Shown: positions 16,860 to 58,025, counted from the stretch's first letter. The stretch: 64,000 nt of DNA from an uncultured Bacteroidales bacterium (GCA_905234655.1 CAJOJG010000004.1:4111-68110); one strand, 5' to 3'. Notes: generated by a model from the sequence alone, not told the origin. Made by a program: numbers and translations.

Positions 16860-16977
16860 AGAGGTTTTTGAAAGGTATTCGACAGATATTCTATAAAGAT
16901 TTCGAAAGATTTTGACAGATATTCGAAAAAGATTTTGAAAGATTTGAAAAAATTTGAAAGATTTCTCGCGAAGCGAC
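16860..16977 (+). repeat. AT-rich degenerate tandem repeats ending in the second copy of the CGCGAAGCG repeat
   Basis: Contains repeated gacagatattc (x2) and gaaagattt(t) (x5) units. The stretch gatttgaaaaaatttgaaagatttctcgcgaagcgac follows at 16941-16977. A further aatcgcgaagcgac lies at 16987-17000. Confidence 0.85.
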
Positions 16978-27602: not shown

Positions 27603-27887
27603 TCAAATTTTTCGTAAACTTTTGACAATGCTTTTTGACGCATCAACATTGAGAGCCGCATATCCGTATAACCGGCGGTTTTTGTATTGTGGGATTTTCT
27701 TAATATCTGACATCCAAGAATTTATGGACATTCGACTGACTGAAATGTAGTATTCTTTTGTGCCATCCTTGAAAACTCTCAACGCAAATGCTGCGAGCAA
27801 TAATCGACCGCTGCCGTCAATCATCTTTGGTGAAAAGACTGCCCTTGCAACATCCTCATTATTTGGCAATTTCGCTTTCATCCGCAT
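27603..27887 (-). CDS. Unknown-family protein B2 (short paralog of 28671-29156); module 2, second gene
   Basis: 94 aa. It shares ..DVARAVF..AFALR..E.YISVSRMS..S..D....LNV with the 161-aa paralog but ends near the equivalent of residue ~96. The internal ATG at 27881 forms an ATGA overlap with the upstream stop. Confidence 0.5.
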   Translation of the reverse strand: MRMKAKLPNNEDVARAVFSPKMIDGSGRLLLAAFALRVFKDGTKEYYISVSRMSINSWMSDIKKIPQYKNRRLYGYAALNVDASKSIVKSLRKI

Positions 27888-28312
27888 TGTTCGTTTATAA
27901 AACGGATTGTTGCAATTATTGCGTCAGGCGAGAACGTTATTTGGTTTTGACCGCCGATGTTTATCCCAACCTTGAAATAATACGAAAAACTGGTTGCGCC
28001 AAGGCTGATTGCCGCATTGTCGCGGCGGATAATAATCGTTCCGTTGATGTTTGGCTCTATGTTCCAACTATGCCAGTCGTTGTTTTTGCTGATTCGGATT
28101 GAGGATTCGATGTTGTTGATGACTGATTTGCTGACCGGCAGCGCATCCATCCCGTCCCATCCATTCCGCAGATATGCGAGTTTGTCGATTGAAACTTTTA
28201 TCCGCGACTTTTCGCTTTCGACGGACAACACGGCATCTTACACCGCGTTATAACTCGATGTCCCGAACGCCACTGCCGGCTCGCTTGCTATGTTGGGGGC
28301 TTTGCTGTCCAT
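27878..28312 (-). pseudogene. Unknown-family protein A2 (paralog of 29157-29621) with an in-frame TAA at codon 25
   Basis: The ATG at 28312 is followed by 24 codons (MDSKAPNIASEPAVAFGTSSYNAV), then a TAA (28240-28238), then the same frame continues as DA-VLSVESEK..LRNGWDGMDALPVS... The track ORF (27878-28231) starts at a GTG just after the stop. The upstream 24 codons align to the N-terminal region of the long paralog (SSYNAV / PSYFDT). Confidence 0.6.
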
Positions 28313-28334
28313 AAGTTCTTGCTTTTTGATGGGG

Positions 28335-28342
28335 CAAATATA
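28335..28342 (-). promoter_or_regulatory. Putative -7 promoter box for module 2
   Basis: The minus strand reads TATATTTG, 23 nt upstream of the ATG at 28312. Confidence 0.4.
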
Positions 28343-28670
28343 GTGAGGAAATTCGAGATTTGCAAAAAAATCACCGCTTAATCTCGCCGCCGCCGTGCAA
28401 CTTCTTGAAAATCTTTTTCATCAGTTTGTAGATGCCGAGGCGGTTGGACCAGAGGCGGGCTTGCTTTTCGAGGCGGTGGCGGAACGTCAGAGGAAAATAT
28501 TTGGCGAAGACCGCCGCCGCCGGAAGCGTGTCGAGGCATAAAGGATTACGACTTGCTTTTTCTCTCTTGTGATGTTAAGCCGTTTCAGTATTTCCATCGG
28601 ACAAATATCGTTGTTCCAACGCCGCGAGTTTTTGCTTTGTTAATTGTTGCTTGCTTCGCAGGGGCCGCCT

Positions 28671-29156
28671 TTATATCTTTTCCTGAACCACCTCTGACAG
28701 TTCAAGAAGTTTGTACCTGACTTTCAACAAAATATCGTCGGTAGAAACGTTTTCTTTCAGTTCAGGAACAAATATGTTGCCGCTTGGCTTTATATTTTTG
28801 TCATCTTGCCTTGTGAAAATTCCGGCGTGGGACTTGATATGCTTGTCGCGAGGCTCAACTTCAACATTCACAGACACTTGAACCCCACCTAAACTGACGT
28901 TTATTTTTCTTATGTCGCCGACATTAAGTTTGGCGTACCGAAGTTTGTCAAAATCGTTGCCAAATGTAAAATCGTCGTGGTCTTTCGCAAAATTCCTTAC
29001 ATCATCGCTGAAAGATTCCACGGATGTACGATTGACAGAAATATAAGTTTCGTTGTACCTCAACGCAAATGCAATGTGCATCAACTCGTCATCCATAAAC
29101 CAATTGCGGTTGAGGATTCGTGCAACATTCTCAGTATCAAGTACAACGTCATTCAT
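28671..29156 (-). CDS. Unknown-family protein B1; module 1, second gene
   Basis: 161-aa ORF whose ATG abuts the upstream TAG (TAG|ATG). The N-terminal half is conserved with B2 (ENVARIL..HIAFALRYNETYISVNRTSVESFSDD..AKLNVGD). I could not place it in any known family. Confidence 0.65.
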   Translation of the reverse strand: MNDVVLDTENVARILNRNWFMDDELMHIAFALRYNETYISVNRTSVESFSDDVRNFAKDHDDFTFGNDFDKLRYAKLNVGDIRKINVSLGGVQVSVNVEVEPRDKHIKSHAGIFTRQDDKNIKPSGNIFVPELKENVSTDDILLKVRYKLLELSEVVQEKI

Positions 29157-29621
29157 CTATCCGATAGTGCGAATTAAATCCAAAAAAGAGTTTGGCGTGA
29201 AAGTCAAATGATTCCCGTGCAGTTCCAAACCGTCAATCACTGCGTAATACGAATATTCCTGTGTCCCAACGCTGATGCAAGCCTTGGTCTTTTTGGATTG
29301 CAAACCCAAAGTGGCGTTAGTTTCGGGACCAATCATCCAACCGTCCCAATCAGCGTCGTCAGAAATCATCAATACCCTTTTGATATTGTCAACCGTCTGT
29401 CTTGCAATCGGCAACGCACCCTCGCCATCCCAATTCTTTTTGAGTTGGCCGATAGCGTCAAGTCTTGAATACATTTTGGACAAGTTTTTGCCGGTCGCTT
29501 CCTCAACGAGCCTACGACCAATCACTTCCTTGTCTTGATTGCTGATATTCAAAGAGTTAATCAACATCATTGTATCAAAATATGACGGCGAATAACTTTG
29601 TATGTTGCCAGTGTATGCCAT
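29157..29621 (-). CDS. Unknown-family protein A1; module 1, first gene
   Basis: 154-aa ORF. The conserved core shared with A2 is LKKNWDGEGALPIARQTVDNIKRVLMISDDADWDGWMIGPETNATLGL..ISVG..YSYY..LTFTP. No family was recognised. Confidence 0.65.
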   Translation of the reverse strand: MAYTGNIQSYSPSYFDTMMLINSLNISNQDKEVIGRRLVEEATGKNLSKMYSRLDAIGQLKKNWDGEGALPIARQTVDNIKRVLMISDDADWDGWMIGPETNATLGLQSKKTKACISVGTQEYSYYAVIDGLELHGNHLTFTPNSFLDLIRTIG

Positions 29622-29646
29622 AAGCGGTTCTATTTCTGTTTCGACG

Positions 29647-29654
29647 CAAACTTA
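29647..29654 (-). promoter_or_regulatory. Putative -7 promoter box for module 1
   Basis: The minus strand reads TAAGTTTG, 26 nt upstream of the ATG at 29621. Confidence 0.4.
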
Positions 29655-29689
29655 CAAATACTTTTTCATTCTGCCAAATCTTTTTCGCG

Positions 29690-30061
29690 CTACTTATAAT
29701 ACCCCCCATACCATTCCGCGAATTTCCTCAATCCTTCCCTTAACCCTGTCTTCGGCTTGAATCCAAATTCCTTTCTAACCGACTTCCCGTTTTTGATGTC
29801 TTCTCTCTCGGGATTTGGCTGAAGGGTATAGTTCCGTTCAAAGCCTTCGGCGACGCCGCTATGCATTTGGTTCAATTCTGCCATTTTGCGTTGACAAATT
29901 TGATTGCCGGTAAAGTGAACTCTCGATGGAAAACTCCATGTTCCTTTTTCCGCTGCAAAGTTATGTAATAATTCTAAAATGTCAACTGTTTTTTTTTGGC
30001 CAGCGAACTTTACATCGAGGTTCCAGGTGTCTGTTATACAGGATTTTAAATATGATTTCAT
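29690..30061 (-). pseudogene. C-terminal remnant of an NAD-dependent nucleotide-sugar epimerase/dehydratase
   Basis: The ORF ends ..KEFGFKPKTGLREGLRKFAEWYGGYYK, the characteristic C-terminus of UDP-glucuronate/UDP-sugar 4-epimerase-type SDRs. The Rossmann N-terminus and the catalytic middle are absent. Confidence 0.7.
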
Positions 30062-30110
30062 TCGTCGGGTGTTTTTGCTATTGTGTGAGATTAAGTGGCA
30101 TGTATATAAT

Positions 30111-30149
30111 CAAAAAGAGGACACAAAGTTTTTTACGACTCTGTGTCCT
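30111..30149 (-). terminator. Rho-independent terminator of the ABC exporter gene
   Basis: The minus strand reads AGGACACA-[loop]-TGTGTCCT followed by CTTTTTG. Confidence 0.55.
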
Positions 30150-30184
30150 CTGTGCAAAAATCCTCTGTGTTCTATGTGCTTAAA

Positions 30185-31975
30185 CTATCCCTCCGTCATC
30201 TTGACAATCTTGTCGATGTTGAGGCTGCGGGCGGAGGCGTCGATGATGTCCTTGTAGATGCCGCCTTGTTTATACACCTCGTCGGGGTTGCCGCCTTGCT
30301 CGACACGGCCGGTATTGAGGGCGTAAATCATCTCTGAATCAATGATTTGCGATATTGAGTGTGAGATGATGACCACGGTGCGGTTTTGCTTGATGGCGTC
30401 GATGGCGTTCTTTATCTGCTCGGTGGCGATGGCGTCGAGGCTCGCGGTGGGCTCGTCGAGGAAAATAATCGGCGGATTTTTCAGGAACATGCGCGCAATG
30501 GCGATGCGCTGCTGCTGCCCGCCCGAAAGGTCGGCGGCGTTGGTCTTGAAGCCGTCGGGCATCTTCTCTATCATGTCGTAGATGTACGCCTTCTTGGCGG
30601 CGTCGCAGACTTCCTCAAATGTGGCGTCGGGACGGCCGTAGCGGATGTTTTCTTCGACCGAGCCGTCAAAGATGTGGTTCTTTTGAAGGACGAGGCCGAT
30701 GTTTTCGCGAAGGTATTGCGTGTCCCAGTCACGGATGTCAACGCCGTCGATTTTGATGGTGCCGTCGTCGGGTTCGTAAAACTTGTCCAAGAGGTTGACG
30801 ACGGTGCTTTTGCCCGCGCCAGACAGTCCGACAAAGGCGGTAATCTTGCCGTGAGGTATCGACATGCTTACGTCTGTAAGTGCCTTGCAGCCATTGGGAT
30901 AGGTGAAGTTGACGTGCGAAATCTCGATGTCGCCGCGCACGGTTTCGGGTCGGTATGTGCCGGTCTGTTCTGCGCTGTCTTTGGCGTCGAGGATGTCAAA
31001 ATAGCCTTCGGCGTAGATAAGTGCCTCATTGACATCGTCGTAGATGCGGTGAAGCTGGCGGATGGGCGCGGTAACGTTGGAAAACAGCATTATGTGGTAC
31101 ATTATCTTGCCGATGGTCATGCCCGGATAGTCGGTGAGCACCAGGTAAGCCGTCAGGATAATGATGAATACCGTGCCTATCTGTTCCACGAAGGTCTTGA
31201 TGCCGTCGTAGATGAAACTGTATTTGCGGGTGTTCAACTGATTGTCGGTCAGGTTGTTGATGATGTCGGTCTGCTTGGTGTACTCTATTTCCTCGCGGTT
31301 GAACGACTTGATGACGTTGATGTTTTGAAGGATGTTCATGATGCCGCTGCTCTTGGCCTCGCGGTAGTTGCGCATGTTGGTGCGCCAGTTTTTGAGTTTG
31401 CCGGCCTGTAAGTACGTGACGTAGAAGTAGATAGGCACTATCACCAACGCCACGAGACCGACGTAGAAATTGGCGGCAAACATCAGCACCAACGCCAATA
31501 CCGCGCTCGTGCCGAGGGGCAGGATGTCGATGAAGAAGTTTTTGATGGTCATCGTGATGAAATCCACGCCACGGTCGATGCGGGTCTGTACTTTGCCGGG
31601 CTTGTTGTCGTCGCGGGTGAAGAAGGCGACTTTGAAGGTCAGGACTTTTTTGATGACCGCCGCCGCCAAGTCTTGCGAAATCAGCACTTTGATGCGTTCT
31701 CCGTAGTATTTTTGGACGAAGTTGATGAGCAATACGAGCAATTCTTTGCCCAGCAATATCGTCGAAATCACTACCATTACGTATGACGCCTGGCTCCACT
31801 CGAAGTGTTCGAGGTGAAGTAGGCGGTTGACTTCATCGACGGTCTTGTCGAGGACGACGGCGTTGACCTGCGCGGCGAGCGACCCTATGAAGGTCATCAC
31901 GAGGGTCAGGACGACGAGCCATTTGTAGGGTTTTACAAATGGCATTATCTTTATGAACAACTGTTTGAGCGACAT
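30185..31975 (-). CDS. ABC exporter, fused permease/ATPase (MsbA/multidrug type)
   Basis: 596 aa with a 6-TM N-domain, Walker A GLSGAGKST, the signature LSGGQQQRIAIARM and Walker B IIFLDEPT. Confidence 0.9.
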   Translation of the reverse strand: MSLKQLFIKIMPFVKPYKWLVVLTLVMTFIGSLAAQVNAVVLDKTVDEVNRLLHLEHFEWSQASYVMVVISTILLGKELLVLLINFVQKYYGERIKVLISQDLAAAVIKKVLTFKVAFFTRDDNKPGKVQTRIDRGVDFITMTIKNFFIDILPLGTSAVLALVLMFAANFYVGLVALVIVPIYFYVTYLQAGKLKNWRTNMRNYREAKSSGIMNILQNINVIKSFNREEIEYTKQTDIINNLTDNQLNTRKYSFIYDGIKTFVEQIGTVFIIILTAYLVLTDYPGMTIGKIMYHIMLFSNVTAPIRQLHRIYDDVNEALIYAEGYFDILDAKDSAEQTGTYRPETVRGDIEISHVNFTYPNGCKALTDVSMSIPHGKITAFVGLSGAGKSTVVNLLDKFYEPDDGTIKIDGVDIRDWDTQYLRENIGLVLQKNHIFDGSVEENIRYGRPDATFEEVCDAAKKAYIYDMIEKMPDGFKTNAADLSGGQQQRIAIARMFLKNPPIIFLDEPTASLDAIATEQIKNAIDAIKQNRTVVIISHSISQIIDSEMIYALNTGRVEQGGNPDEVYKQGGIYKDIIDASARSLNIDKIVKMTEG

Positions 31976-31984
31976 TGTGTTGGA

Positions 31985-33154
31985 TTATTTTAGGATTTCG
32001 TCGGCGAGGGTTTCGAGGGCGGCGCGGTCGGTGTCTTTCAGCGCGCCACGGACGGTGGCGACGGTGGGGCAGATTTCCACGTCCTTGAAGTCGGCAAACA
32101 TCTCGCGCATTATGCGTGCCGCCTGCGGTGCCCAAGAGCCGTTTTCGACGAGGGCGACGCGGCGTTTTTGGTAGTTTTTGATTTTGAGGTGGTGGACGAA
32201 ATCGACCATCTTCGGGAACAATCCGCCGTCATACGTGGGCGCGGCGAGGACGAGTTTGCCATATTTGAATGCGTCTTCGATGCCCTCCGCCCAGTCTTCT
32301 TCGCAGAGGTTTGAGATTGCGACTTTGGGTGCGCCTTTTTGGCGAAGGATTTCGGCGAGAGCCTCGGCGACTTTGCCGGTATTGCCGTGCATCGTGCAGT
32401 ATGCGATGAAAACGCCCTCGCTCTCAACGTCATACGCGCTCCAGATGGTGTAGAGCCTGAGTGCTTCGGCGAGCATTTCGCCTTTCAAAATCGGGCCGTG
32501 AAGTGGGCAGATGGTTTCGATTGAGAGTGCGGACGCTTTTTTGAGCAACGCCTGCACCTGTGCGCCGTATTTGCCGCAGATGTTGAAGTAATAGCGACGC
32601 GCCTCGCATGCCCAGTCGTCAGGCTCTGCGTCGTAAACGCCAAATTTTCCGAAGCCGTCGGCGCTGAACAGAACTTTGCTCGTCTGGTCGTAGGTTACGA
32701 TTACTTCGGGCCAGTGGACCATCGGCGCGGTGAAAAATTGCAGTGTGTGTTTGCCGAGCGCGAGGGTTTCGCCTTCCTTGACGGTCTTGACGTTGGCGGC
32801 TAAATCCGCGCCGGGGAAGTATAGGGCGAGCATCTTGTTGGCGGCGGCAGACATCACGAGCTGGATTCCGGGGTATTTTTTGACGGCTTCGGCGATGAGC
32901 GACGAGTGGTCGGGTTCCATGTGCTGGACGACGAGGTAGTCGGGTGTGCGGCCGTTGAGGGCTTGGTCGAGGTTGGCGAGCCACTGCGCCCCGCAGCGGT
33001 CGTCGATGGTGTCCATGATGGCGATTTTGTCGTCGAGGATTAGGTACGAATTGTAGCACATGCCTTCTTCGAGCATGTACTGGCCTTCAAATTGTGTGAT
33101 CTCGCTGTCGTCGCAGCCTATGTAGATGATGTCGTTGTTGATTGTCTTGTCCAT
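31985..33154 (-). CDS. FprA-family A-type flavoprotein (metallo-beta-lactamase domain plus flavodoxin domain)
   Basis: Contains the di-iron motif VVQHMEPDHSS and a flavodoxin-like C-domain (IAYCTMHGNTGKVAEAL). The likely start is MDKTINND at 33154. The track ORF start at 33229 would overlap the upstream toxin gene. Confidence 0.85.
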   Translation of the reverse strand: MDKTINNDIIYIGCDDSEITQFEGQYMLEEGMCYNSYLILDDKIAIMDTIDDRCGAQWLANLDQALNGRTPDYLVVQHMEPDHSSLIAEAVKKYPGIQLVMSAAANKMLALYFPGADLAANVKTVKEGETLALGKHTLQFFTAPMVHWPEVIVTYDQTSKVLFSADGFGKFGVYDAEPDDWACEARRYYFNICGKYGAQVQALLKKASALSIETICPLHGPILKGEMLAEALRLYTIWSAYDVESEGVFIAYCTMHGNTGKVAEALAEILRQKGAPKVAISNLCEEDWAEGIEDAFKYGKLVLAAPTYDGGLFPKMVDFVHHLKIKNYQKRRVALVENGSWAPQAARIMREMFADFKDVEICPTVATVRGALKDTDRAALETLADEILK

Positions 33155-33173
33155 TTTTGTTTGAATATGTTTT

Positions 33174-33500
33174 TTATTGATTGTTTTCTTCGATTGATTT
33201 TGCAAGATTTTCGGGGCTACGCCGCACATCCCAAATGGCGACGATTTCCAAAATGTCTTCCTTTAAAATTCTGTAAACCACTTTGTTAAGTGGATTAATG
33301 ACGACACTTCGGTATGTACTCGCTTTCTCCACCAGATTAGGTTCAATTTTACCCATGTAGGGATTAGTTTCGAGACGGTCAATGTTGTCCAGAACTTCAG
33401 AAACAAACTTTGCTTTGGAACGTTCTCCATTGTGGGTTAGGATATAATTGCTTATAGAGTCGAATTTTTCCTGTGCTTCGTCAAGGATGCGTACTTTCAT
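33174..33500 (-). CDS. Type II toxin, RelE/ParE family
   Basis: 108 aa: MKVRILDEAQEKFDSI..NPYMGKIEP......YRSVVINPLNKVVYRILKEDILEIVAIWDVRRSP. A 4-nt overlap links it to the upstream antitoxin gene. Confidence 0.8.
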   Translation of the reverse strand: MKVRILDEAQEKFDSISNYILTHNGERSKAKFVSEVLDNIDRLETNPYMGKIEPNLVEKASTYRSVVINPLNKVVYRILKEDILEIVAIWDVRRSPENLAKSIEENNQ

Positions 33501-33775
33501 ACTGCTTGTCTTTCTAAGATTTCGTACTCTGTTCCAATGAGTTCCCTGCGCAGCCGTTCCTTGAACTCCTCTCCTGATATGTATTGACCATTCTCGGATT
33601 GCCGCTCTGCCTCGTCAATCATTGCGTATATTTGCTCTTTTGTGTAGGGCACAAGTTCCTCCGCTTCTTTCTTCTCGACATCTTCCAACAGTTGGCTGGC
33701 GACCCAGCGTTTGTCGCGAAATGAAAGAGTGTCTTTCAGATAGTCCAACAGGCTATTTAATGCTTTTTCGCTCAT
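33497..33775 (-). CDS. Cognate antitoxin (small acidic protein)
   Basis: The likely start is MSEKALNSLLDYLK at 33775. It is 92 aa, lies immediately upstream of the ParE-like toxin and overlaps it. The family was not recognised. Confidence 0.6.
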   Translation of the reverse strand: MSEKALNSLLDYLKDTLSFRDKRWVASQLLEDVEKKEAEELVPYTKEQIYAMIDEAERQSENGQYISGEEFKERLRRELIGTEYEILERQAV

Positions 33776-33848
33776 AATGTTTCTGTTTAATGGTTTCGTG
33801 CGGTAAAGGTACGACAATATTTTAAAATTCCAAAAAATAATCTACAAA

Positions 33849-33889
33849 CAAAAAATCCCGTATGCAGTTTTTTGACATGCATACGGGAT
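33849..33889 (-). terminator. Rho-independent terminator of the serpin gene
   Basis: A 12-bp perfect stem ATCCCGTATGCA/TGCATACGGGAT is followed on the minus strand by TTTTTTG. Confidence 0.7.
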
Positions 33890-33911
33890 TTCGGTTTTAT
33901 GGGGGAGTTGG

Positions 33912-35261
33912 TTATTTTATGCTTTTCACAACGCCGGTGAAGAGCGGGATGCCGTTTCTGGTAAGGATGTAGACGAAGTCGCGGTCGACGACGAAGTCTT
34001 CATAAACGTCTTTGAGGACGTTTTCGCCGGGGCCGGGGGCTCCGCACAACATTTCAAATTCGGTTATCGCCGCACCCTCGATGCCGGATTTTGTGACTTC
34101 GAGGTTTGTCACGTGCTTGACTTTGCCACAGTAGACTGAGTGGTTTGTGATGTTGCTGAAATCACAGCTGTTAGCGTCGAACAACTTCTTGACACCCAAG
34201 TCTTTGAGCGTTTTTTTTATGTCGTTGTCGAAAGTCGCTTTGAACTCCGGGAAGAGGCAACGTGTGTGGTAGCGGTTGGCATCGTCGGTGTAGACGTATG
34301 GCGTCGGGTTGTCGAGGACTTCTGGTGTGTAGATGTCCTCGACGGTATGTCCGTCTGTGGGAACGTAGAATGTAAGTCCGATGCCATTCTCCGTATATGT
34401 CACGAATTTACGGAAAAGTTCGGTCCGTAGTGCGCGTCCGCTATTGTAATAGCCTTGCAGGAGTTTTATGCTGGTTTTGGAGTTGTTGAAGTTCTTGAAG
34501 TCGTACTTCTCGGATGTAAATTCGAGGTCTTCGTTAAACTCGTTCCATATATCTCTGAGGTACACGACGTTAAGCAATACCATCGCCATGTCGTCTGATA
34601 CTTCCAAGTTGGGGCTGAGAAGGCCGTTAGTCTCATTCTTGATGTACGAGGTTATGACGCTATTTACATTAGTGGTGAAATCCAGCGTGAACAGGTCGCT
34701 GAAGTAGTTGGTGGTTAGTGACTTTATTCCGCTGTCCTTTACGTCAAAGCCTTCGCGGAGCCACAGCGAGTTGACGCATTTGACCTGGTTTTCGGAAACA
34801 TGGTAGCCGAGAGCCTGATTGCAGTCGTAGTTCAGAGCCTGGATGTTCGAGGAGAGTTCCTCGTATGAGACTCCGAGTACGTCGAGGAGTTCCTGCCGTG
34901 TCTCGCCGCTTGCACATTCTGTCGCCATGCCCAAGCCCATGAAGATTGAAACCGGCGATACTGCGATGTTCTTGTCGCCTTTGCAGCCGATTGAAGTGGC
35001 GACTTTGTTGGAGAAATGGTTGACCTTGCCGACGAAGTTGGAGTACTCGTCGCCCCATGTCTTGCCGTACATGGATTCATCGTCGGGCGCGACCTTGCTG
35101 GCGATTTTTGCCTTTGAGATGGCGGCCTCGTTCTCCACCTCGTAGTTGTCGGGGGTGACGTGGTCGGGTCTTGGGTTCTCGGATTCGTCCTTGCAGGACG
35201 GGGTTGCCGCGAGGAGAGCGGCGGCGGCGAGTGCCGCGAGTGTGTGTTTCGTGATGTTCAT
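33912..35261 (-). CDS. Serpin-family lipoprotein (serine protease inhibitor fold)
   Basis: The likely start is MNITKHTLAALAAAALLAATPS|CKDE at 35261 (lipobox). The serpin C-terminal signature is present: GIEGAAITEFEM..(reactive-loop region)..FVVDRDFVYILTRNGIPLFTGVV. Confidence 0.85.
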   Translation of the reverse strand: MNITKHTLAALAAAALLAATPSCKDESENPRPDHVTPDNYEVENEAAISKAKIASKVAPDDESMYGKTWGDEYSNFVGKVNHFSNKVATSIGCKGDKNIAVSPVSIFMGLGMATECASGETRQELLDVLGVSYEELSSNIQALNYDCNQALGYHVSENQVKCVNSLWLREGFDVKDSGIKSLTTNYFSDLFTLDFTTNVNSVITSYIKNETNGLLSPNLEVSDDMAMVLLNVVYLRDIWNEFNEDLEFTSEKYDFKNFNNSKTSIKLLQGYYNSGRALRTELFRKFVTYTENGIGLTFYVPTDGHTVEDIYTPEVLDNPTPYVYTDDANRYHTRCLFPEFKATFDNDIKKTLKDLGVKKLFDANSCDFSNITNHSVYCGKVKHVTNLEVTKSGIEGAAITEFEMLCGAPGPGENVLKDVYEDFVVDRDFVYILTRNGIPLFTGVVKSIK

Positions 35262-35400
35262 GTTACTTTTATGAAAAATTAGTAAGTAGTTTGTGTTAAT
35301 TTCATATTTATAACACATGTAAACTTCAAAACCCTATAAAATTTTCAACTAAATATCTCTTTTAGCAGTGTTTAATCGACATTATGAGTTGATATATAAC

Positions 35401-35441
35401 AAAATACGCCACGCAATCTTTTTGAGCGTTTTGCGGGGCGT
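35401..35441 (-). terminator. Rho-independent terminator of the nitroreductase gene
   Basis: Stem ACGCCaCGCAA/TTGCGgGGCGT (one mismatch) is followed on the minus strand by a T-run. Confidence 0.45.
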
Positions 35442-35454
35442 AGTGTCGTGATTT

Positions 35455-36207
35455 TTATTCAATGCGGAAACTTTTCTTTACAAAATCGAGGTATTTTTTT
35501 GAGAAAGTTGCACCGTCTTTGGCAGTGTAGCGGACTTGGGTGAACACTTCGGCAAGGTTGGCGAGTTTGTTGTCGGCGACAAACTGCTTCATCTTGTCGA
35601 GGTTTTCGATTTCGGAGTAGTACTCGTCAATCTGTTCGGGAGTGTATTGGCGGTATTTCTCGAAATGAACGACGGCCTCAAACGGCAGACGCTCAGTAAG
35701 TTCGCCAGTGGGCTGCTCCTCCGGGTAGCCTGCGGCCATCGTCACTACCGGCACGACGCCTTGTGGCAGGTTAAGTACCTTAGAAATCTCCTCGGCGTTG
35801 TACATAGTCGTCCCGAGAAAACATATTCCAAGTCCTTTACTCTCAGCGGCTAATGCGGCGTTCTCCGCAGCAAGGACAGTGTCCACTAATGCCGTCGAGA
35901 ACCACAGGAAGTTGTCGTAGCATGGCTCCGTGCCGCGCTGTCTGCACCATTGGGAAAACCGGTTGACGTCGGCGCAGAATGTGAACACTAACGGGGCTTC
36001 CTGGACCATCTTTTGGTTGAAGTGGAGCGGCAGGAGCTCGTTCTTAATCTTCGGCTGTGTGGACAGTATGACGCTGTATAGTTGCATGTTGCCGGTGTTG
36101 GAGGCGCGGATTGTCGCCTCGAAGATGTCCTTGATTATTGTCTCGTCGACAATGCGCCGTGTGAAGTTCCTGACGGAGGCGTGGTTTTTAAGTATCGGAA
36201 TGTTCAT
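35455..36207 (-). CDS. Nitroreductase-family NAD(P)H-dependent oxidoreductase
   Basis: 250 aa. Contains HASVRNFT, RASNTGNMQLYS and a core collinear with NfsA-like enzymes. Confidence 0.8.
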   Translation of the reverse strand: MNIPILKNHASVRNFTRRIVDETIIKDIFEATIRASNTGNMQLYSVILSTQPKIKNELLPLHFNQKMVQEAPLVFTFCADVNRFSQWCRQRGTEPCYDNFLWFSTALVDTVLAAENAALAAESKGLGICFLGTTMYNAEEISKVLNLPQGVVPVVTMAAGYPEEQPTGELTERLPFEAVVHFEKYRQYTPEQIDEYYSEIENLDKMKQFVADNKLANLAEVFTQVRYTAKDGATFSKKYLDFVKKSFRIE

Positions 36208-36273
36208 TTGCTTAGATTTTGGTTTGGCGGCGTCCGTGACGCTTCTGTCCGAGGGTCACGTGGAGCCGGGTTA

Positions 36274-36765
36274 TCATTGGTGGTGGTTCTTCTTGATGTT
36301 CCTCGTGATCGGGATTTTGTACGACTGTTTTACGACGCCCATCACAAAGCTGCTGCTCAGGCTGCCGATGCAGTCGAGCTGGCCAAGGATGCGGAGTATG
36401 AACTCCTGGTACTCTTTCATGGAGGCGACGTATATTTTGAGCTGGAAGTCGTAGTCGCCGGTCACGTTATAACATTCGGCGATTTCGTCCATTTCCTGCA
36501 CTGCCTGCATGATTTTCTGGGCGTTCTCGAATGAGTGCTGCTTGAGCTTGATGTTGCATATCGCCATGAATGCGCAGTCGAGCTTGTCGACGTCGAGGAT
36601 TGCCACATACTTTTTTATGTAGCCCTCCTCCTTCATCCTCTTGACGCGCTCGAAGACCGGGGTGGGGGAGCGGTGGACTTTCTGGGCGAGTTGGCGGTTC
36701 GTCATTGATGCGTCCTCTTGGAGTGCGTCGAGGAGCATGAGGTCGGTTTCGTCGAGTTTTTCCAT
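36274..36765 (-). CDS. Lrp/AsnC-family transcriptional regulator
   Basis: 163 aa with an HTH (LDETDLMLLDALQEDASMTNRQLAQKVHRSPTPVFERVKRMKEEGYI) and a RAM/AsnC_trans_reg domain. Confidence 0.9.
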   Translation of the reverse strand: MEKLDETDLMLLDALQEDASMTNRQLAQKVHRSPTPVFERVKRMKEEGYIKKYVAILDVDKLDCAFMAICNIKLKQHSFENAQKIMQAVQEMDEIAECYNVTGDYDFQLKIYVASMKEYQEFILRILGQLDCIGSLSSSFVMGVVKQSYKIPITRNIKKNHHQ

Positions 36766-36766
36766 G

Positions 36767-37789
36767 TTAGCTGATTATTTTGAAGTGTTTCTTGATGAAC
36801 TGCTGTGACATTACGTTTATTTCCTTGTTGAGGAGTTTCTGCTCGGACTTCTCGAGGTTGTAATAGTCTGACGACGAGTCCTTTATGAGGTCTTCGACGA
36901 CATCCTTGGAGTACATGCCGAGGAGTTTGCCGAGGTCTTTGGGCATGGAGACGTGGCCGATGTGGCTGATGACGTTGTTAAGGCGGTTTTCGGTCACGTA
37001 GAGCGATGCCTTGGCGACGAGAGTGTTAAGTTCCTCGGAATATACGGGGTCGACTTTCTGCACTTTTGGCGCGCGCTTAATGCCTTTTTTCTCGGCGAAT
37101 CGCTCGTTCTTGTTCTTTATAAGCACACGCTCGCCGTAGTTTATGTATGTCGGCTCGACGGGGCGGATTACGATGCCTTCGCAGATGTTGTCGTCGATGG
37201 GCGGATAGCCAAGCCACTGCGAGATTTTGCTCGGGAACTTGTTGGGGTATTCCAGGCACTCGGCGAGCGTGCCCTCGAACAGTGTCTTTGCGTATATGAA
37301 ACCGTGCTTTTCGAACAGCTCGTTAGTCTGCTCGACGGTCAGGTAGTGCTTCCCCTCGGGGTGGGCGACGTAGATGTCAAACCCGTAAAACTCGTGGTTA
37401 GGGCAGTAGTAGACGCCTTTTTGGATTGCGCTGAAACGTGTGTCGCGTTTGATGTCCTTGTGCGGGTACGCGCCGCCGAACATCTCGCCGTATATTATGG
37501 CGAACTCGAGGTCTTTGAACATCTTCTGCAAGTCTGCGTAGAGTTTCAGGACTTTTGGCTTGTAGCGTTCGAAGAGTTCCTCGTAGTCGTAGAACTTCTC
37601 GCCGTCCGACAGCAGGTCGGTGCGCTTTGCGAACTTAATCTCGTGGCCGTCGGTGATGAAGCTTGTGTTCGCGCCGTGGACTTTCTCCTGGACGACGTAG
37701 CGGAGAGCGGCAGGTGTCTCGGCTTTCACCTTGTCCACAAACTCGGTGTTGAACGAGTTTTCTATTGAGCTGTATTTCTTAAATTCCAT
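36767..37789 (-). CDS. Rnl2-type ATP-dependent RNA ligase
   Basis: 340 aa. The nucleotidyl-transferase motif I reads VVQEKVHGANTSF (compare T4 Rnl2 EKIHGTN). The size and collinear motifs (IYGEMFGG, LIKNKNERF) fit the Rnl2 family. Its stop lies 1 nt from the Lrp ATG. Confidence 0.75.
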   Translation of the reverse strand: MEFKKYSSIENSFNTEFVDKVKAETPAALRYVVQEKVHGANTSFITDGHEIKFAKRTDLLSDGEKFYDYEELFERYKPKVLKLYADLQKMFKDLEFAIIYGEMFGGAYPHKDIKRDTRFSAIQKGVYYCPNHEFYGFDIYVAHPEGKHYLTVEQTNELFEKHGFIYAKTLFEGTLAECLEYPNKFPSKISQWLGYPPIDDNICEGIVIRPVEPTYINYGERVLIKNKNERFAEKKGIKRAPKVQKVDPVYSEELNTLVAKASLYVTENRLNNVISHIGHVSMPKDLGKLLGMYSKDVVEDLIKDSSSDYYNLEKSEQKLLNKEINVMSQQFIKKHFKIIS

Positions 37790-37893
37790 TGTTTGACAAG
37801 TTTTTTTTCGTTTGCATCAACAAAAATACGAAAACTATTTTTTGAAAACAAATTTTTTCCATAATTTTGTTTTGTTTTTTTGAGGAACACCAA

Positions 37894-39132
37894 ATGAAAT
37901 CACCCAAAATCGCAATCATAGGCGGCGGCGCGTCGGGCTTTTTCTGCGCCGCCAACGTCAAGCAGATGATGCCGAAGGCTGACGTGACGGTCTTCGAGTC
38001 CGGCATACAGCCATTGCGCAAACTCGGAATGACTGGCGGTGGCCGTTGTAATATAACAAACACATTCGCCGCCGTCGACGACCTGCGCATGGCGTATCCG
38101 CGTGGGCATAACCTGATGAAAAAACTTTTCCATGAGTTTGACCACGAGGACACTTTTGAGTGGTTTGCCGGTCATGGCGTGGAACTCTACGCGCAGGACG
38201 ACGGGAGGGTTTTCCCGGTTTCAGAGAGCGCGCAGATGGTCTGTTCGGCATTATTATGCACCGTCAGTGGCCTTGGAGTGTGGCTCATGACGGGTCATAA
38301 GGCCGTTGGGATTAAGAAAATGGAAGATGGGAAATTTTCGGTGATTTTTTCTGACGGCGAATTTGAGGACGGATTTGACGCTGTGGTAGTAGCGACTGGC
38401 GGGTGGTCAAAAGACAGGCTGTACGAATCGTTGGAAACGCTTGGCATAGAGTTAGTTCCGCCAGTCCCGTCGCTGTTTTCCCTGAAGGTTAAGAGTAACA
38501 CTCTCACAAGTCTCATGGGTGCGTCCGTGGAGAGTGCGATTGTCGGAATCCCTGGTCAAAAATTTCGCGGCGATGGTGGCTTGATTGTCACGCATTTTGG
38601 ATTTTCAGGACCGTCGGTGTTGAAACTGTCGTCGTATGCGGCGAGGTTTTTGGCGGATAATAATTATAAATGCGACATCCTTATTAACTGGCTCGGAAAG
38701 ACCGACGAGGAAGTTCGCAATGAGATTTTGGGCATCGCCAATGTCAATCCTCTGAAATCCACCGCCACTGTCCACCCAAAGGGCCTGACGCAGCGGCTTT
38801 GGGAATTTCTGCTTTCGCGGGCTGAAATCGACCCGTCAACGAAATACTGTGAACTCGGGAAGAAGAACCTCAACAAGTTGACCAGCACACTCTCCGCCGA
38901 CTTGTACCACGTCTCGGGGCGCGGGCAATACAAGGACGAATTTGTAACGTGCGGCGGCGTGTCGTTGGATTGTGTAAACTCCAAAACGCTTGAATCAAAG
39001 GTTGTGAAAAATCTCTATTTCACCGGCGAGGCTCTCGACGTGGACGCAATCACCGGCGGGTTCAACCTGCAAAACTGTTGGACGACGGGAATGGTGGTTG
39101 CAAAGGCGATTGTAAAAGAACAAACGAATTAG
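37894..39132 (+). CDS. HI0933/BaiN-like NAD(P)/FAD-dependent oxidoreductase
   Basis: The likely start is MKSPKIAIIGGGASGFFCA at 37894. Contains GGGRCNITN and the C-terminal FTGEALDVDAITGGFNLQ. Confidence 0.85.
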   Translation: MKSPKIAIIGGGASGFFCAANVKQMMPKADVTVFESGIQPLRKLGMTGGGRCNITNTFAAVDDLRMAYPRGHNLMKKLFHEFDHEDTFEWFAGHGVELYAQDDGRVFPVSESAQMVCSALLCTVSGLGVWLMTGHKAVGIKKMEDGKFSVIFSDGEFEDGFDAVVVATGGWSKDRLYESLETLGIELVPPVPSLFSLKVKSNTLTSLMGASVESAIVGIPGQKFRGDGGLIVTHFGFSGPSVLKLSSYAARFLADNNYKCDILINWLGKTDEEVRNEILGIANVNPLKSTATVHPKGLTQRLWEFLLSRAEIDPSTKYCELGKKNLNKLTSTLSADLYHVSGRGQYKDEFVTCGGVSLDCVNSKTLESKVVKNLYFTGEALDVDAITGGFNLQNCWTTGMVVAKAIVKEQTN

Positions 39133-39153
39133 TGCATTGCGCATCGAATTGTG

Positions 39154-39188
39154 CGTTATGCATTATGAATTATGAATTATGCATTGAT
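39154..39188 (+). repeat. Heptamer array, copy B (cgttatg cattatg aattatg aattatg cattgat)
   Basis: Same MATTATG unit family as 13070-13097. It ends 3 nt before the ATG at 39192. Confidence 0.85.
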
Positions 39189-39191
39189 AAA

Positions 39192-39908
39192 ATGAAATAC
39201 GAAATGGAACAAGTGCTTGATTTTCTGAGGGAAATCAAGGTCAACAACAACACAGAATGGATGCACGCCCACCGTGCGGAATACGAGCGTGCGAGAGACA
39301 CTTTCAAGGCGTTGAGCCAGGAAATATTGACCAAAATGCAGGTCATCGACCCATTTTTGCGCGGTCTGGAACTGAAAAACTGCATTTTCCGTTTCAACCG
39401 CGACACCCGTTTTTCGGCGGACAAGGCACCGTACAAGCGGCATTTTGGCGTGTATTACGTGCCGGGCGGCAAGAAGGTGGTCGGCGCGGGCTATTACCTT
39501 CATATCCAGCCGGTTGATAGCGACGACCCCGACCCATTGTTCAGCCGAAGCATGGTTGACATCGGCATCTACATGCCGCCGTCCAAGGCCGCCAAAATCA
39601 TCCGCGAAGAAATCTATTACGGTGGCGGACAGCAACTTGTAGAGTTTTTGTCGCAGAAGAAGGTGAAGCAAACTTTCACCCTCGACAACGCCGACCCCTT
39701 GCGCGTCCTGCCCAAAAACCTCAAGGATTCGCCCTACGACCAGCTAATCCGCATGCGCAACTGGGACATGAGCCGCACCCTGACCGACGAGGAAGTATTG
39801 GCTGACGATTTCGTGGACCGCGTCATCGACATGTTTGCGCTCGGCAAGCCCTGGAACGATTTTTTCAACAATGTCTTGGACGGCGCAGATTTCGAGTCGG
39901 CGTTCTGA
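39192..39908 (+). CDS. DUF2461 / TIGR02453 family protein
   Basis: Contains MKYEMEQVLDFLREIKVNNNTEWMHAHRAEYE..CIFRFNRDTRFSADKAPYKRHFG. The track ORF start at 39078 reads through the repeat element and is unlikely to be real. Confidence 0.8.
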   Translation: MKYEMEQVLDFLREIKVNNNTEWMHAHRAEYERARDTFKALSQEILTKMQVIDPFLRGLELKNCIFRFNRDTRFSADKAPYKRHFGVYYVPGGKKVVGAGYYLHIQPVDSDDPDPLFSRSMVDIGIYMPPSKAAKIIREEIYYGGGQQLVEFLSQKKVKQTFTLDNADPLRVLPKNLKDSPYDQLIRMRNWDMSRTLTDEEVLADDFVDRVIDMFALGKPWNDFFNNVLDGADFESAF

Positions 39909-39929
39909 TGAAGTAATTGTCGCAACCGT

Positions 39930-40083
39930 CGAACCAACCCAAACGATGGTATTTGAGGTTGACATCGTAATAATCGTTGAGATTGTCGATGCCGATTATT
40001 TTCGTGTCGGGCTGTTCGTTAATGATGCGCTTGCAAAGATGCGAGCCGATGAAGCCCGCCGCGCCTGTGATGAGAATTGTCAT
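39930..40083 (-). pseudogene. N-terminal remnant (~50 codons) of an NAD-dependent nucleotide-sugar epimerase
   Basis: MTILITGAAGFIGSHLCKRIINEQPDTKIIGIDNLNDYYDVNLKYHRL is a Rossmann GxxGxxG N-terminus. Homology then ends and the frame runs into the 3' end of the convergent DUF2461 gene. Confidence 0.7.
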
Positions 40084-40094
40084 ATTTTTCAATG

Positions 40095-40122
40095 CATAAT
40101 TCATAATGCATAATTCATAATT
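40095..40122 (-). repeat. Heptamer array, copy C (minus strand: aattatg aattatg cattatg aattatg)
   Basis: Same unit order as copy A. The flanks are also shared (cgccRRatggc upstream, attgaaa downstream). It ends 11 nt before the epimerase-remnant ATG at 40083. Confidence 0.9.
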
Positions 40123-40136
40123 GCCATTCGGCGTTT

Positions 40137-40320
40137 TCAAACCCGTCTTATCCACGCCCCCGGCACATACGCCGTCGCATATCTTCCCACGCCCTGCAAT
40201 TCCACGAATACCCTTTTCTGATGCTTGTATTTCATCACAATGCCCTCGACCCCAGCGAACGGCCCGCCGATGACAACCACGCGGTCGCCGGTCAAGAGTG
40301 TTTTTTTTAGTGGCGTGTTG
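40137..40320 (-). pseudogene. C-terminal (KOW) remnant of a UpxY/NusG-like capsule-locus antiterminator
   Basis: ..LLTGDRVVVIGGPFAGVEGIVMKYKHQKRVFVELQGVGRYATAYVPGAWIRRV matches the UpxY C-terminal pattern (GD.V.V..GPF.G.EG.V....RV.V.L.G...ATAY.P). The N-terminal NGN domain is missing. Confidence 0.65.
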
Positions 40321-40358
40321 CACTCAAAAAAAGTGTCGCCTGATGTTGTTTGAAAAAA

Positions 40359-40374
40359 TATTTTTGTATTTTTG
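40359..40374 (+). promoter_or_regulatory. Two tandem putative -7 boxes for metA
   Basis: TATTTTTG TATTTTTG, 29-37 nt upstream of the ATG at 40403. Confidence 0.45.
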
Positions 40375-40402
40375 CATCGTATTAAATGAAAAGGAGGTAA
40401 TA

Positions 40403-41320
40403 ATGCCGCTGACAATTCCTGACAAACTTCCGGCAATAGAATTGCTGAAGAAGGAGAATATCTTTGTGATTGACAATTCAAGAGCCAACTCGCAGGACAT
40501 CAGGCCCTTGAAGATTGCCATTCTTAATCTCATGCCCATAAAGGAGACTACTGAGACTGACTTGCTGCGTCTGTTGAGCAACTCGCCGCTCCAGATTAAC
40601 ATAGATTTCATAAAGCTCCGCAGCCATGTCTCGAAGAACACTCCGATAGAGCACATGCAGCAGTTCTACCTCTATTTTGACATTGTTAAAAAGCGGAAGT
40701 ACGATGGACTGATTGTGACAGGTGCGCCTGTGGAACAGTATGAGTACGAGCAGGTTAATTATTGGAGCGAACTCACTGAGGTCTTCGACTGGGCGCGGAC
40801 TAATGTCACTTCAAAGATGTTCATCTGCTGGGGCGCGTGTGCCGCTCTGTACCATTATTATGGGATTCCGAAGCATGACACTTACGAGAAGGTTTTCGGC
40901 GTATTCAAGCACAATGTCCTCGAGCCGTTGAACCCGATTTTCAGAGGGTTTGACGATGTGTTCTATGTCCCTCATTCAAGGCACACGGAGATTGTGGCGG
41001 AGGATGTGGACAAGGTTCCGGAGATAAAAATCATGGCGTCGAGTGTCGATGCCGGGCTGTACATGATGATGGCCAAGGGTGGGCGTGAGCTCTATCTCAC
41101 TGGCCATGCGGAGTACAATGCGCGCACGCTTGACGCTGAATATAAGCGTGACCTCCAGAAGGGGCTGCATATCGACATTCCTAAAAACTACTATCCATAC
41201 GACGATCCCGACCTCGACCCGCTCGTAAGGTGGCGGTCTACGGCTAACCTCATGTTTTCCAACTGGTTGAACTATTTTGTATATCAGGAGACACCGTATA
41301 ATATTGATGATATTAAGTAG
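40403..41320 (+). CDS. metA: Homoserine O-acyltransferase (MetA family)
   Basis: Contains MPLTIPDKLPAIELLKKENIFV, IRPLKIAILNLMP.K..TE and GLIVTGAPVE. The track ORF start at 40298 is upstream of the promoter boxes. Confidence 0.92.
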   Translation: MPLTIPDKLPAIELLKKENIFVIDNSRANSQDIRPLKIAILNLMPIKETTETDLLRLLSNSPLQINIDFIKLRSHVSKNTPIEHMQQFYLYFDIVKKRKYDGLIVTGAPVEQYEYEQVNYWSELTEVFDWARTNVTSKMFICWGACAALYHYYGIPKHDTYEKVFGVFKHNVLEPLNPIFRGFDDVFYVPHSRHTEIVAEDVDKVPEIKIMASSVDAGLYMMMAKGGRELYLTGHAEYNARTLDAEYKRDLQKGLHIDIPKNYYPYDDPDLDPLVRWRSTANLMFSNWLNYFVYQETPYNIDDIK

Positions 41321-44000: not shown

Positions 44001-44131
44001 GGTCTTTCGTTTTTTTGTTGTTTTTTCTGATTAGGTGGGTTGCAATAGGCTTGCCAAAGTGGATTTTATGACAAGATGGCAGGGATTGGCGGCGAGATGG
44101 CAGATGTGGGATGTCAGAATGGCGGAAAGAG

Positions 44132-44410
44132 TTAATTTTTTCCAAACAATTCCGAATGAGAACCAAGCCTCACCAATTCGACAATGTTGTTTTTTTCGTC
44201 AATCCAAATCAGAAGGAAATCACCTTGTATATGACATTCCATGCAGCCATTATATTTGCCGTGAAGCATGTGCGGCTGATATTCGGCAGGTATTGCCTGT
44301 TCATTTTGAAGCATTTCCAAAACTTCTTGAAGTGCTTTTATTTTGTTTGGATTGTTCTTAAACCTTTTGTAGTCTTTCCTATATTGTGTTGTAGGTTGAA
44401 GTGTTCTCAT
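44132..44410 (-). CDS. Type II toxin, YafQ/RelE family
   Basis: 92 aa. Contains QYRKDYKRFKNNPNK, HMLHGKYNGCMECHIQGDFLLIW and LVRLGSHSELF. A 4-nt overlap links it to the upstream gene. Confidence 0.85.
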   Translation of the reverse strand: MRTLQPTTQYRKDYKRFKNNPNKIKALQEVLEMLQNEQAIPAEYQPHMLHGKYNGCMECHIQGDFLLIWIDEKNNIVELVRLGSHSELFGKN

Positions 44411-44661
44411 TCCTCTGCGTCAAGGTCTTTAAAAAGTTCTTCCACACTATTGTATATTTTGTTCGGATTGTTGCCTGATATCGCTTCTTCAATAGCCGCC
44501 TTTGTAACCGCATTCGGTTCATTATAGACATCATCGAGAAGAACTGTCTCTACGTAGTAATTAAGCGACCACTTTCTGCGAGCCGCTTTTTCTTTTAGCA
44601 TATCCAAAAGGTCTGTCCTCAGACGAAAAGATGTTGGTTTTCTGATAGTTGCTGTTGCCAT
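44407..44661 (-). CDS. Cognate antitoxin (RHH-like)
   Basis: The likely start is MATATIRKPTSFRLRTDLLDMLKEKAARRKWSLNYYVETVLL at 44661. Confidence 0.65.
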   Translation of the reverse strand: MATATIRKPTSFRLRTDLLDMLKEKAARRKWSLNYYVETVLLDDVYNEPNAVTKAAIEEAISGNNPNKIYNSVEELFKDLDAEE

Positions 44662-57903: not shown

Positions 57904-57939
57904 GAGGAAAGAGGAGAGAGGAAAGAGAAAAATCAGTAA

Positions 57940-58014: not shown

Positions 58015-58025
58015 AAATAACAGAA

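Follow-up and report, generated by a model that had tools for sequence, protein, structure and literature searches.

Scattered remnants of a probable capsular polysaccharide operon head in housekeeping DNA of an uncultured Bacteroidales bacterium

Proteins of the UpxY family (NF033644) are NusG-like antiterminators (NusG-SP) and are encoded by the first gene of Bacteroides capsular polysaccharide (CPS) operons. UDP-glucuronate 4-epimerase-like extended short-chain dehydrogenases/reductases (SDRs; PF01370/PF16363; Protein Data Bank (PDB) entry 5u4q; about 340-360 amino acids (aa)) are often encoded by the first biosynthetic gene in Bacteroidales CPS loci. Here we present an analysis of two short pieces of such an operon head, termed relic A (the end of upxY and the start of an epimerase gene) and relic B (the end of an epimerase gene), on the minus strand of a stretch of 64,000 nucleotides (GCA_905234655.1 CAJOJG010000004.1:4111-68110), referred to below as the window. 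The host is an uncultured Bacteroidales bacterium of about 50% GC from the gut of a ruminant or other animal. Loci of relatives are cited by L numbers and proteins by P numbers.

Recognition of ops was shown experimentally to depend on the NGN domain of UpxY, which has also been modelled as the interface binding RNA polymerase and as the surface contacting UpxZ; Bacteroidales usually have several CPS loci, each with a UpxY (PMC11685472). The original prediction, made from the sequence of the window, took the site for the wreck of a CPS locus and considered the two epimerase pieces as possible halves of one gene, parted by a 10-kb block that extends from an ABC exporter gene to a DUF2461 gene. 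The comparison with relatives leads to a different reading, to which we assign a probability of about 0.6: relics A and B are separate, non-functional pieces of a CPS operon head that lie in native housekeeping DNA, and the main remnant of that head is linked to trp genes elsewhere. The window holds neither a capsule locus nor its wreck. No other capsule gene (flippase Polysacc_synt, polymerase/EpsG, glycosyltransferase or sugar-modifying families) was found by gene calls and Pfam in the 64 kb, and tblastn found no further epimerase sequence in the window.

Relic A (39.9-40.3 kb) is one continuous internal piece of an upxY-epimerase junction that runs from the final 50 codons of upxY across the natural spacer to codon 60 of the epimerase gene. 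The upxY part (40137-40296, minus strand) comprises about 52 codons (LTGDRVVVIGGPFAGVEGIVMKYKHQKRVFVELQGVGRYATAYVPGAWIRRV) and the stop codon, while the NGN domain and its own start codon are missing. That this is a UpxY-type KOW fragment devoid of NGN, as had been proposed, is borne out by the profiles: Pfam KOW matches with 27.3 bits (cut-off 22.3) and NF033644 with 48.6 bits (E 8e-13), the latter at profile positions 114-162 of 164 only and thus below the whole-protein cut-off of 100 bits, and the competing NCBIfam profiles LoaP (24.6 bits), RfaH (21.7 bits) and NusG (17.4 bits) are far weaker. The KOW tail shares 49 of 50 aa (86.8% of the DNA) with the full-length UpxY of L178 and 48 of 50 aa with that of L168, which is 96-98% protein identity to the tails of full-length UpxY-like proteins encoded before CPS genes. 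It differs from these proteins in the lack of NGN, of the 5' untranslated region (UTR) with the ops region, and of a start codon. The stub abuts the metA promoter, and the UTR/ops region is not present there. It is contained in an open reading frame (ORF) of 114 aa (40137-40481, stop codon 40137-40139), whose N-terminal residues, about 60, are not UpxY but the antisense of the metA 5' coding region and promoter, because this part aligns antisense to the start of metA in L005, L013, L019 and L020. The replacement of the 5' part of upxY by the metA promoter region, also proposed originally, was in this way confirmed.

The native spacer between upxY and the epimerase gene (40084-40136, minus strand, 53 bp) contains an (AATTATG)n heptamer array at 40091-40122 (Tandem Repeats Finder: period 7, 4.6 copies). 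It is followed by the N-terminal epimerase stub (39904-40083, minus strand; ATG at 40083-40081), codons 1-60 of a UDP-glucuronate 4-epimerase-like SDR, which retains its start codon and native leader. The stub matches PF01370 with 32.9 bits (cut-off 20.9), its best solved structure is 5u4q (residues 4-50, E 1.5e-12), and it carries the Rossmann motif TGAAGFIGS (GxxGxxG) and the conserved motif 'DNLNDYYDV.LK'. Its closest match in a set of 5.8 billion protein clusters has 78% identity. Identity to the N-terminus of P0227 is 77% across 48 aa, and the alignment runs on to codon 60, where '..KYHRLGWFDGCDNYFIR' of the window stands opposite '..KLHRLEWFKDCVNFEFR' of P0227; the stub therefore ends at 39904 and overlaps the DUF2461 stop codon (39906-39908). 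An epimerase N-terminus ending together with the DUF2461 gene had been predicted correctly, but it has 60 codons, not about 50. The gene caller annotated it as a 72-aa product in independent assemblies. Both stubs of relic A are free of stop codons and frameshifts.

Intact counterparts of relic A are found in related contigs, where the upxY-epimerase spacer of 60-70 bp is followed by the epimerase gene and then by further CPS genes; the epimerase gene comes directly after upxY, with no upxZ between (L168, L178). In L178/L180 the order is trpF, trpA, a 428-bp UTR, upxY (225 aa), a 62-bp spacer, the epimerase gene for P0123 (352 aa) and further CPS genes. The second intact head, L168, has upxY, spacer and the gene for P0227, then FdtA, DegT, flippase and GT2. 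Relic A is colinear with L168 (window 40289-39915 aligns to L168 358-755, 398 bp), and the heptamer of its spacer is present in the L168 upxY-epimerase spacer in opposite orientation. The origin of the pieces from the head of a CPS operon, as foreseen in the original prediction, is supported by these colinear junctions in L168 and L178/L180, whereas the wrecking of a locus at the site itself is not, in view of L005 and 80 metA loci described below. The CPS biosynthesis cluster downstream of upxY, present in L168 and L178 and decayed in L085, is absent from the window.

Contigs L085/L086 carry the trp-linked remnant. The gene order of L085 is trpE, G, D, C, F and A, about 555 bp, epimerase codons from about 140 to 352, unkA, unkB, a truncated flippase gene and EpsG, where unkA and unkB denote two short genes that also occur in the window. 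The truncated epimerase, P0001 (213 aa), has P0123 as its closest full-length relative (88.5% aa identity). Alignment with L178 shows that L085 kept the UTR and upxY codons 1-13, and that the stretch of about 1.13 kb between upxY codon ~13 and epimerase codon ~140 is deleted. At L085 6650-7328 the deletion joins upxY codons 1-13 in frame to epimerase codon ~140 (product MNFLSDGKYLKCSMFGCVYGSNKK...), and at the same locus the flippase is reduced to half length (209 aa) and EpsG is short (240 aa). The whole L085 capsule locus looks inactivated. Relic A corresponds to L178 ~1917-2321, which lies wholly within the deletion gap of L085, and the divergence of the KOW tail from L178 upxY equals that of L085 trpA from L178 trpA, 86.8% identity each. 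Members of the UpxY family open CPS operons, behind a long 5' UTR that carries an ops-like site; the KOW stub does not, and the UTR with upxY codons 1-13 remains at the trp-linked locus of L085.

Relic A is flanked by native genes. On its left lies the DUF2461 gene (39192-39908, plus strand; PF09365, 187.5 bits), with a syntenic orthologue of 82% aa identity in L005, and on its right metA for homoserine O-acyltransferase (40403-41320, plus strand; PF04204, 444.8 bits; 93% aa identity to L005). L005 is the closest species with the gene order of the window (RNA ligase, HI0933, FKBP gene, DUF2461, metA) and has no CPS sequence. By blastn, window 39189-39909 matches L005 2299-3013 and window 40347-40690 matches L005 3060-3404; the homology goes to the DUF2461 stop (39909) and picks up again in the metA promoter (40347), and between the two blocks L005 has 46 bp where the window has 437 bp. 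The insert relative to L005 amounts to about 410 bp (39909-40321), from the DUF2461 stop to the leftover of the ancestral DUF2461-metA spacer, pieces of which are still discernible on the metA side. From a by-eye alignment with L005, the junction DNA between KOW stub and metA promoter (40297-40346) would consist of leftover ancestral spacer (TCAAAAAAAGTG..GATGTTGTTTGAAAAAATAT) and about 22 bp that could not be placed. Of 80 metA loci from relatives, none has a UpxY or epimerase gene less than 10 kb away from metA. Relic A most likely arose when about 410 bp were inserted into the DUF2461-metA spacer in a single step, since it is one continuous internal piece with ancestral spacer on both sides. 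A relative with the same gene order and no CPS genes at this site speaks directly against the original prediction.

Beside metA other close relatives have a GH97 gene (L170-L177) or HI0933 (L012, L014, L017, L018, L021). In L170-L177 (metA more than 90% identical) GH97 flanks metA and a Cys_Met_Meta_PP gene (O-acetylhomoserine sulfhydrylase-like) directly follows it. In the window the Cys_Met_Meta_PP gene is located at 15485-16771, 24 kb from metA, and metA is followed by ClpB. Within the clade the surroundings of metA have undergone repeated reshuffling.

Relic B (29690-29776, minus strand) consists of the last 28 codons of an epimerase gene (RKEFGFKPKTGLREGLRKFAEWYGGYYK, 29693-29776) and the stop codon. 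Its best homologue is the C-terminus of P0001 (25 of 26 aa identical; BLAST stretches the alignment to 44 aa at 64%), its DNA is 82-85% identical to the 3' ends of full-length epimerase genes in L178, L168 and L169, and it carries the conserved tail 'FGFKPKT.LREGLRKFAEWY'. The ORF of 123 aa that contains it (29690-30061) matches 5u4q with E 9.7e-5, resting on the C-terminal residues. The N-terminal stub of relic A and this C-terminal piece thus share their best PDB match, and both have the full-length proteins P0136 and P0227 among their closest relatives; a shared best match was one of the checks proposed originally. With Rossmann motif, conserved tail and 5u4q as best match the stubs resemble UDP-glucuronate 4-epimerase-like SDRs; they differ from them in having 60 and 28 of about 345 codons, which are non-contiguous and have separate histories. 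Members of the family are encoded by one continuous ORF of about 340-360 aa; the window has two stubs 10 kb apart, and the catalytic Ser/Thr and Tyr-x-x-x-Lys (residues ~125-160) and the substrate-binding domain are absent from both. Between the two stubs about 255-265 codons are missing, in place of the roughly 170 central codons estimated at first.

The whole ORF had been regarded as the C-terminal third of an epimerase, which does not hold for its upstream part (29777-30061, minus strand). The ORF was skipped by the gene caller and has no Pfam or NCBIfam match. Without the final 28 residues, the upstream 95 aa have no PDB match at E<=10, and their Smith-Waterman score against the nearest epimerase homologue is 23, which is below the mean of 25.4 for shuffled sequences and is reached by 1488 of 2000 shuffles. 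By blastn 29777-30061 matches no fetched locus, and no frameshifted epimerase sequence was found in the other frames of 29600-30250. The entire 123-aa ORF was dropped as an epimerase candidate for these reasons, namely the shuffle-level score of its first 95 aa and their lack of a PDB match and of DNA homology. The upstream part is of unplaced origin and probably no gene, and the ORF is best taken as a chance chimera in which only the 28 codons are epimerase-derived.

Relic B is part of a 190-bp tract (29585-29775, minus strand) that leads from the epimerase tail through a 65-bp spacer into unkA1, of which it covers codons 1-12. The tract is near-identical to L085 7244-7429 (94-100% identity to L085/L086; 94% overall counting a 4-nt gap), and in L085/L086 it is the true 3' end of the 5'-truncated epimerase gene. 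In sliding windows the identity to L085 is 0.84-1.0 within the tract, 0.3-0.5 upstream and 0.4-0.76 downstream. The 5' edge is sharp at 29775, where epimerase DNA homology begins abruptly, and on the 3' side identity decays to 50-70%. The epimerase tail is in this position the upstream leader of a two-gene module (28671-29621, minus strand), unkA1 (29157-29621, 154 aa) and unkB1 (28671-29156, 161 aa). A second copy of the module, unkA2 (117 aa) and unkB2 (94 aa), lies at 27603-28231 on the same strand, and a third paralogous pair is found inside the decayed CPS locus at L085 7393-8318 (54% aa identity for unkA and 48% for unkB). The combination of a near-identical 190-bp 5' region with diverged unkA and unkB bodies suggests recombination between paralogues.

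In the tandem modules (27603-29621) stop and start codons abut or overlap, and the layout resembles toxin-antitoxin pairs. UnkA and UnkB have no significant match in Pfam, NCBIfam, PADLOC or PHROG; the unkB family comprises only 88 representative clusters among 1.84 billion proteins. AlphaFold single-sequence models of UnkA and UnkB (pLDDT 32 and 37) are too poor for a fold search.

The codon differences allow a statement on timing. Between the KOW tail and L168 there are 23 synonymous and 2 conservative nonsynonymous codon differences (dN 0.018, dS 1.32, dN/dS ~0.014), and dN/dS between P0001 and P0227 is ~0.065. From these low ratios it follows that the KOW tail and P0001 spent nearly all of their divergence time in functional genes and that the break-up was recent. 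Equally, the near-identical tract beside unkA and unkB bodies of 50-70% identity indicates a recent transfer of the tract between old paralogues.

Whether the L085 locus belongs to the genome of the window bears on the source of both relics. L085/L086 come from the same two ENA samples as the window contigs L002/L003. A scan of about 165 Bacteroidales loci detected arrays of (ATTATGN)>=3 only in contigs of the window species and in L085/L086. In tetranucleotide composition L086 correlates with the window more strongly than any other of 137 loci (r = 0.89; 0.82-0.93 for the window's own 11-kb chunks), and L085 and the window have the 190-bp tract in common. These four lines are compatible with one genome, and none is proof; L085/L086 are most likely part of the genome of the window.

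The following sequence of events would account for these features. The trp-linked CPS head would have broken up recently. Illegitimate (non-homologous) joining would have trapped a piece of about 0.4 kb, in reverse orientation, where the DUF2461-metA spacer had broken, and a separate, one-sided homologous exchange between unkA paralogues would have brought the epimerase tail before unkA1; the tract ends would then represent a non-homologous join at 29775 and an exchange within the 5' part of unkA. The relationships of the sequences point to the trp-linked head as the probable donor of relic A. The two epimerase stubs may share a source gene, having arrived by separate events; they would not be complementary halves, since the bulk of the gene and its own copy of the tail sit at the trp-linked locus. 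A narrower proposal is that relic A is the captured middle of the 1.13-kb segment excised from the trp-linked locus, so that one event both deleted and pasted ('cut-and-capture' or 'shrapnel'); this we put forward only tentatively, as rather doubtful. If true, cut-and-capture would have silenced the capsule operon by loss of the UpxY antiterminator and left the in-frame upxY(1-13)-epimerase(140-352) fusion, and the case would illustrate repair of this kind occurring naturally in a Bacteroidales genome.

Several points weigh against this account. L085 and the window are without physical link and could be from co-occurring strains. The N-terminal stub is 58% identical to the trp-linked P0123 (L178) as opposed to 77% to P0227 (L168), and no donor above 78% identity is present among the 5.8 billion protein clusters; a CPS locus other than the trp-linked one could therefore have been the donor, or the N-terminal region may have a mosaic origin. 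The likeness to P0227 says little on this matter, because the N-termini of the family are variable (median 68% among 115 full-length relatives of 340-371 aa) and P0001 is equidistant from both proteins. The analysis located neither of the pieces that flank relic A in the deleted segment of L085 (upxY codons 13-174, epimerase codons 61-140). L005 alone shares the DUF2461-metA adjacency, so that insertion in the window and clean loss in L005 are not strictly separable, and to our knowledge break-repair capture of this kind has not been documented in Bacteroidales.

A different donor is the most serious of the other explanations, yet still an unlikely one. Relic A would then have its source in another CPS locus of this genome, or in foreign DNA taken up for instance by transformation, and its overlap with the gap in L085 would be coincidental. 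The closer match of the N-terminal stub to P0227 and the several CPS loci, each with a UpxY, that are usual in Bacteroidales (PMC11685472) are in keeping with this, whereas the databases hold no closer donor, the spacer heptamer array is restricted, among about 165 loci scanned, to contigs of the window species and L085/L086, and the KOW tail and trpA show the same divergence from L178. Decay in place is quite improbable. It assumes an ancestral CPS locus between DUF2461 and metA, of which the window kept a 0.4-kb piece and L005 lost everything. CPS loci are often gained and lost in Bacteroidales, and a single outgroup cannot prove the direction of change. However, two independent deletions, each flush with the ancestral spacer, would be needed; the head that matches the KOW tail in 49 of 50 aa stands intact beside trpA in L178, and L085 lost the counterpart of relic A at that very place; a dN/dS of ~0.014 leaves little time for decay, and 0 of the 80 metA loci have CPS genes. 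The split of one resident epimerase gene by the 10-kb block from ABC exporter to DUF2461, in the wreck of a CPS locus, is hardly credible any more, even though the pieces lie on the same strand in the right order, are of the same family and share 5u4q, P0136 and P0227 among their best matches. RNA ligase, HI0933, DUF2461 and metA are syntenic in L005 without CPS sequence; the C-terminal piece has only 28 codons and duplicates, near-identically, the end of the epimerase remnant in L085; and its sharp edge and its linkage to unkA show that it came with the unkA/unkB module. In about 155 loci of relatives no CPS genes are near metA or the ABC exporter gene, and the GC content of the block (29.7-40.1 kb) is within the normal range of the window, low only in toxin-antitoxin-like modules and the unkA/unkB region. 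The block as compositionally foreign DNA was ruled out by this GC profile, a check which the original prediction had itself proposed.

Retention of the stubs for a function, be it a KOW-only peptide, the 72-aa Rossmann peptide, or a terminator or insulator between DUF2461 and metA, is very improbable. The absence of stop codons and frameshifts, the very low dN/dS of the KOW tail, the kept epimerase start codon and leader, and the fixation of the insert in all assemblies would fit such a role, but a low dN/dS against a distant homologue mostly reflects time spent within an intact gene, the KOW stub is without start codon and NGN, and no terminator-like hairpin was found in the insert. No comparable conserved short-ORF family was found, the context of other short cluster matches being left unexamined. 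An assembly chimera with mis-joined reads of a CPS locus has a negligible probability. The window matches metagenome-assembled contigs, and heptamer repeats can mislead assemblers; against this, the window corresponds to contigs assembled independently from three metagenome samples, with 100% identity and named by three conventions (k141_, k87_, scaffold_). Relic A and its junctions are identical in the contigs of all three samples and hence no assembly artefact; relic B was found in L004.

For neither relic is a function expected from its sequence. The KOW stub could not act, because a start codon is missing and so is the NGN domain, which determines ops recognition and is modelled to bind RNA polymerase, and the epimerase stubs could not act, because the region with the catalytic Ser, Tyr and Lys is missing. 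A Rfam scan of 27.0-41.5 kb gave no family match and one sub-threshold chance match only. A scan of 39.0-40.5 kb for sigma-70 promoters and terminators yielded nothing above shuffle expectation, with a tool that does not model Bacteroidetes promoters. Relics A and B resemble bacterial gene relics or captured 'filler' DNA as short, promoterless, truncated, intergenic pieces at a site that is empty in a related genome. They differ in that relic A corresponds to the inside of a segment deleted elsewhere, which suggests cut-and-capture rather than erosion in place.

AATTATG arrays of 4-5 copies (ATTATGA/ATTATGC) are located at 13070-13101 (plus strand), 39146-39185 (plus strand) and 40091-40122 (minus strand) of the window and at L085 5324-5351. 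Each array directly precedes a start codon, and the four genes concerned (DUF2400, DUF2461, the epimerase stub and L085 trpA) are unrelated. The motif TCCGCCGGATGGCAA precedes the array at 13056, its one-mismatch form CGCCGAATGGCAA precedes the relic A array, and the exact TCCGCCGGATGGCAA motif is also present within the upxY-epimerase spacer of L178. The arrays may act as clustered regulatory sites or as a mutable leader. Those around DUF2461 form a 36-nt inverted repeat (92% complementary) that brackets DUF2461 and the epimerase stub, which recalls the phase-variable CPS loci of Bacteroides fragilis and B. thetaiotaomicron. In contrast to these, the arms are heptamer arrays also found 5' of unrelated genes, gene calls revealed no recombinase or invertase among the neighbouring genes, and one orientation was seen. 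An invertible element was ruled out on the grounds that heptamer arrays of dispersed occurrence make up the arms and that three assemblies agree in orientation.

On the other side of the 10-kb block, an intrinsic-terminator-like hairpin (30112-30150, minus strand; GAGGACACAGAG..CTTTGTGTCCTC followed by TTTTT), read from the sequence, lies 3' of the ABC exporter gene and before the region of the epimerase tail. Within 10 kb of the ABC exporter no epimerase or UpxY gene was found in about 75 loci of relatives, and unkA/unkB were found downstream in none. With the closest ABC exporter relatives (L088-L091, 96-97% aa identity) homology ends at the ABC stop codon. In L088-L091 a 16S rRNA operon starts ~250-300 bp past this stop codon (window equivalent 30185), and in the window the epimerase tail and unkA/unkB modules stand in place of the 16S rRNA operon. 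The downstream flank of the ABC exporter is a rearrangement hotspot.

Further features of the window include a split susD-family gene, with a SusD-like_3 N-terminal ORF (7350-8078, plus strand) and a SusD_RagB C-terminal ORF (8102-8932, plus strand), located between a SusC-like TonB-dependent receptor gene on the upstream side and two GH30 genes on the downstream side; the split probably marks a pseudogene (nonsense mutation or frameshift) or else an error of sequencing. The housekeeping genes are interrupted by two toxin-antitoxin-like pairs of low GC: a ParE toxin with an upstream partner of 92-106 aa (33174-33817, minus strand), adjoined by a serpin gene (33912-35318), and a YafQ toxin with an 84-aa partner beside ClpB (~44130-44660, minus strand). 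Further AT-rich tandem arrays with periods of 7-33 are intergenic (13012-13049, 16866-16965 and 57880-58027), and microsatellite-like arrays between genes seem to be a general feature of the genome.

For annotation it follows that the 72-aa "epimerase" call and the KOW ORF should be labelled as gene remnants and that the site should not be listed as a capsule locus. No new system or function is revealed: these are ordinary gene remnants, mildly curious in that an internal piece of a deleted segment is located at a distant intergenic site. If the link to the trp-linked deletion holds, they would offer a concrete and datable case of capsule operon inactivation by loss of UpxY, and of the capture of short DNA at distant sites within the phylum. 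More generally, the case shows the recent dismantling of a capsule-locus head in an uncultured rumen or gut Bacteroidales species, with small fragments of the head dispersed to intergenic sites that have no relation to it.

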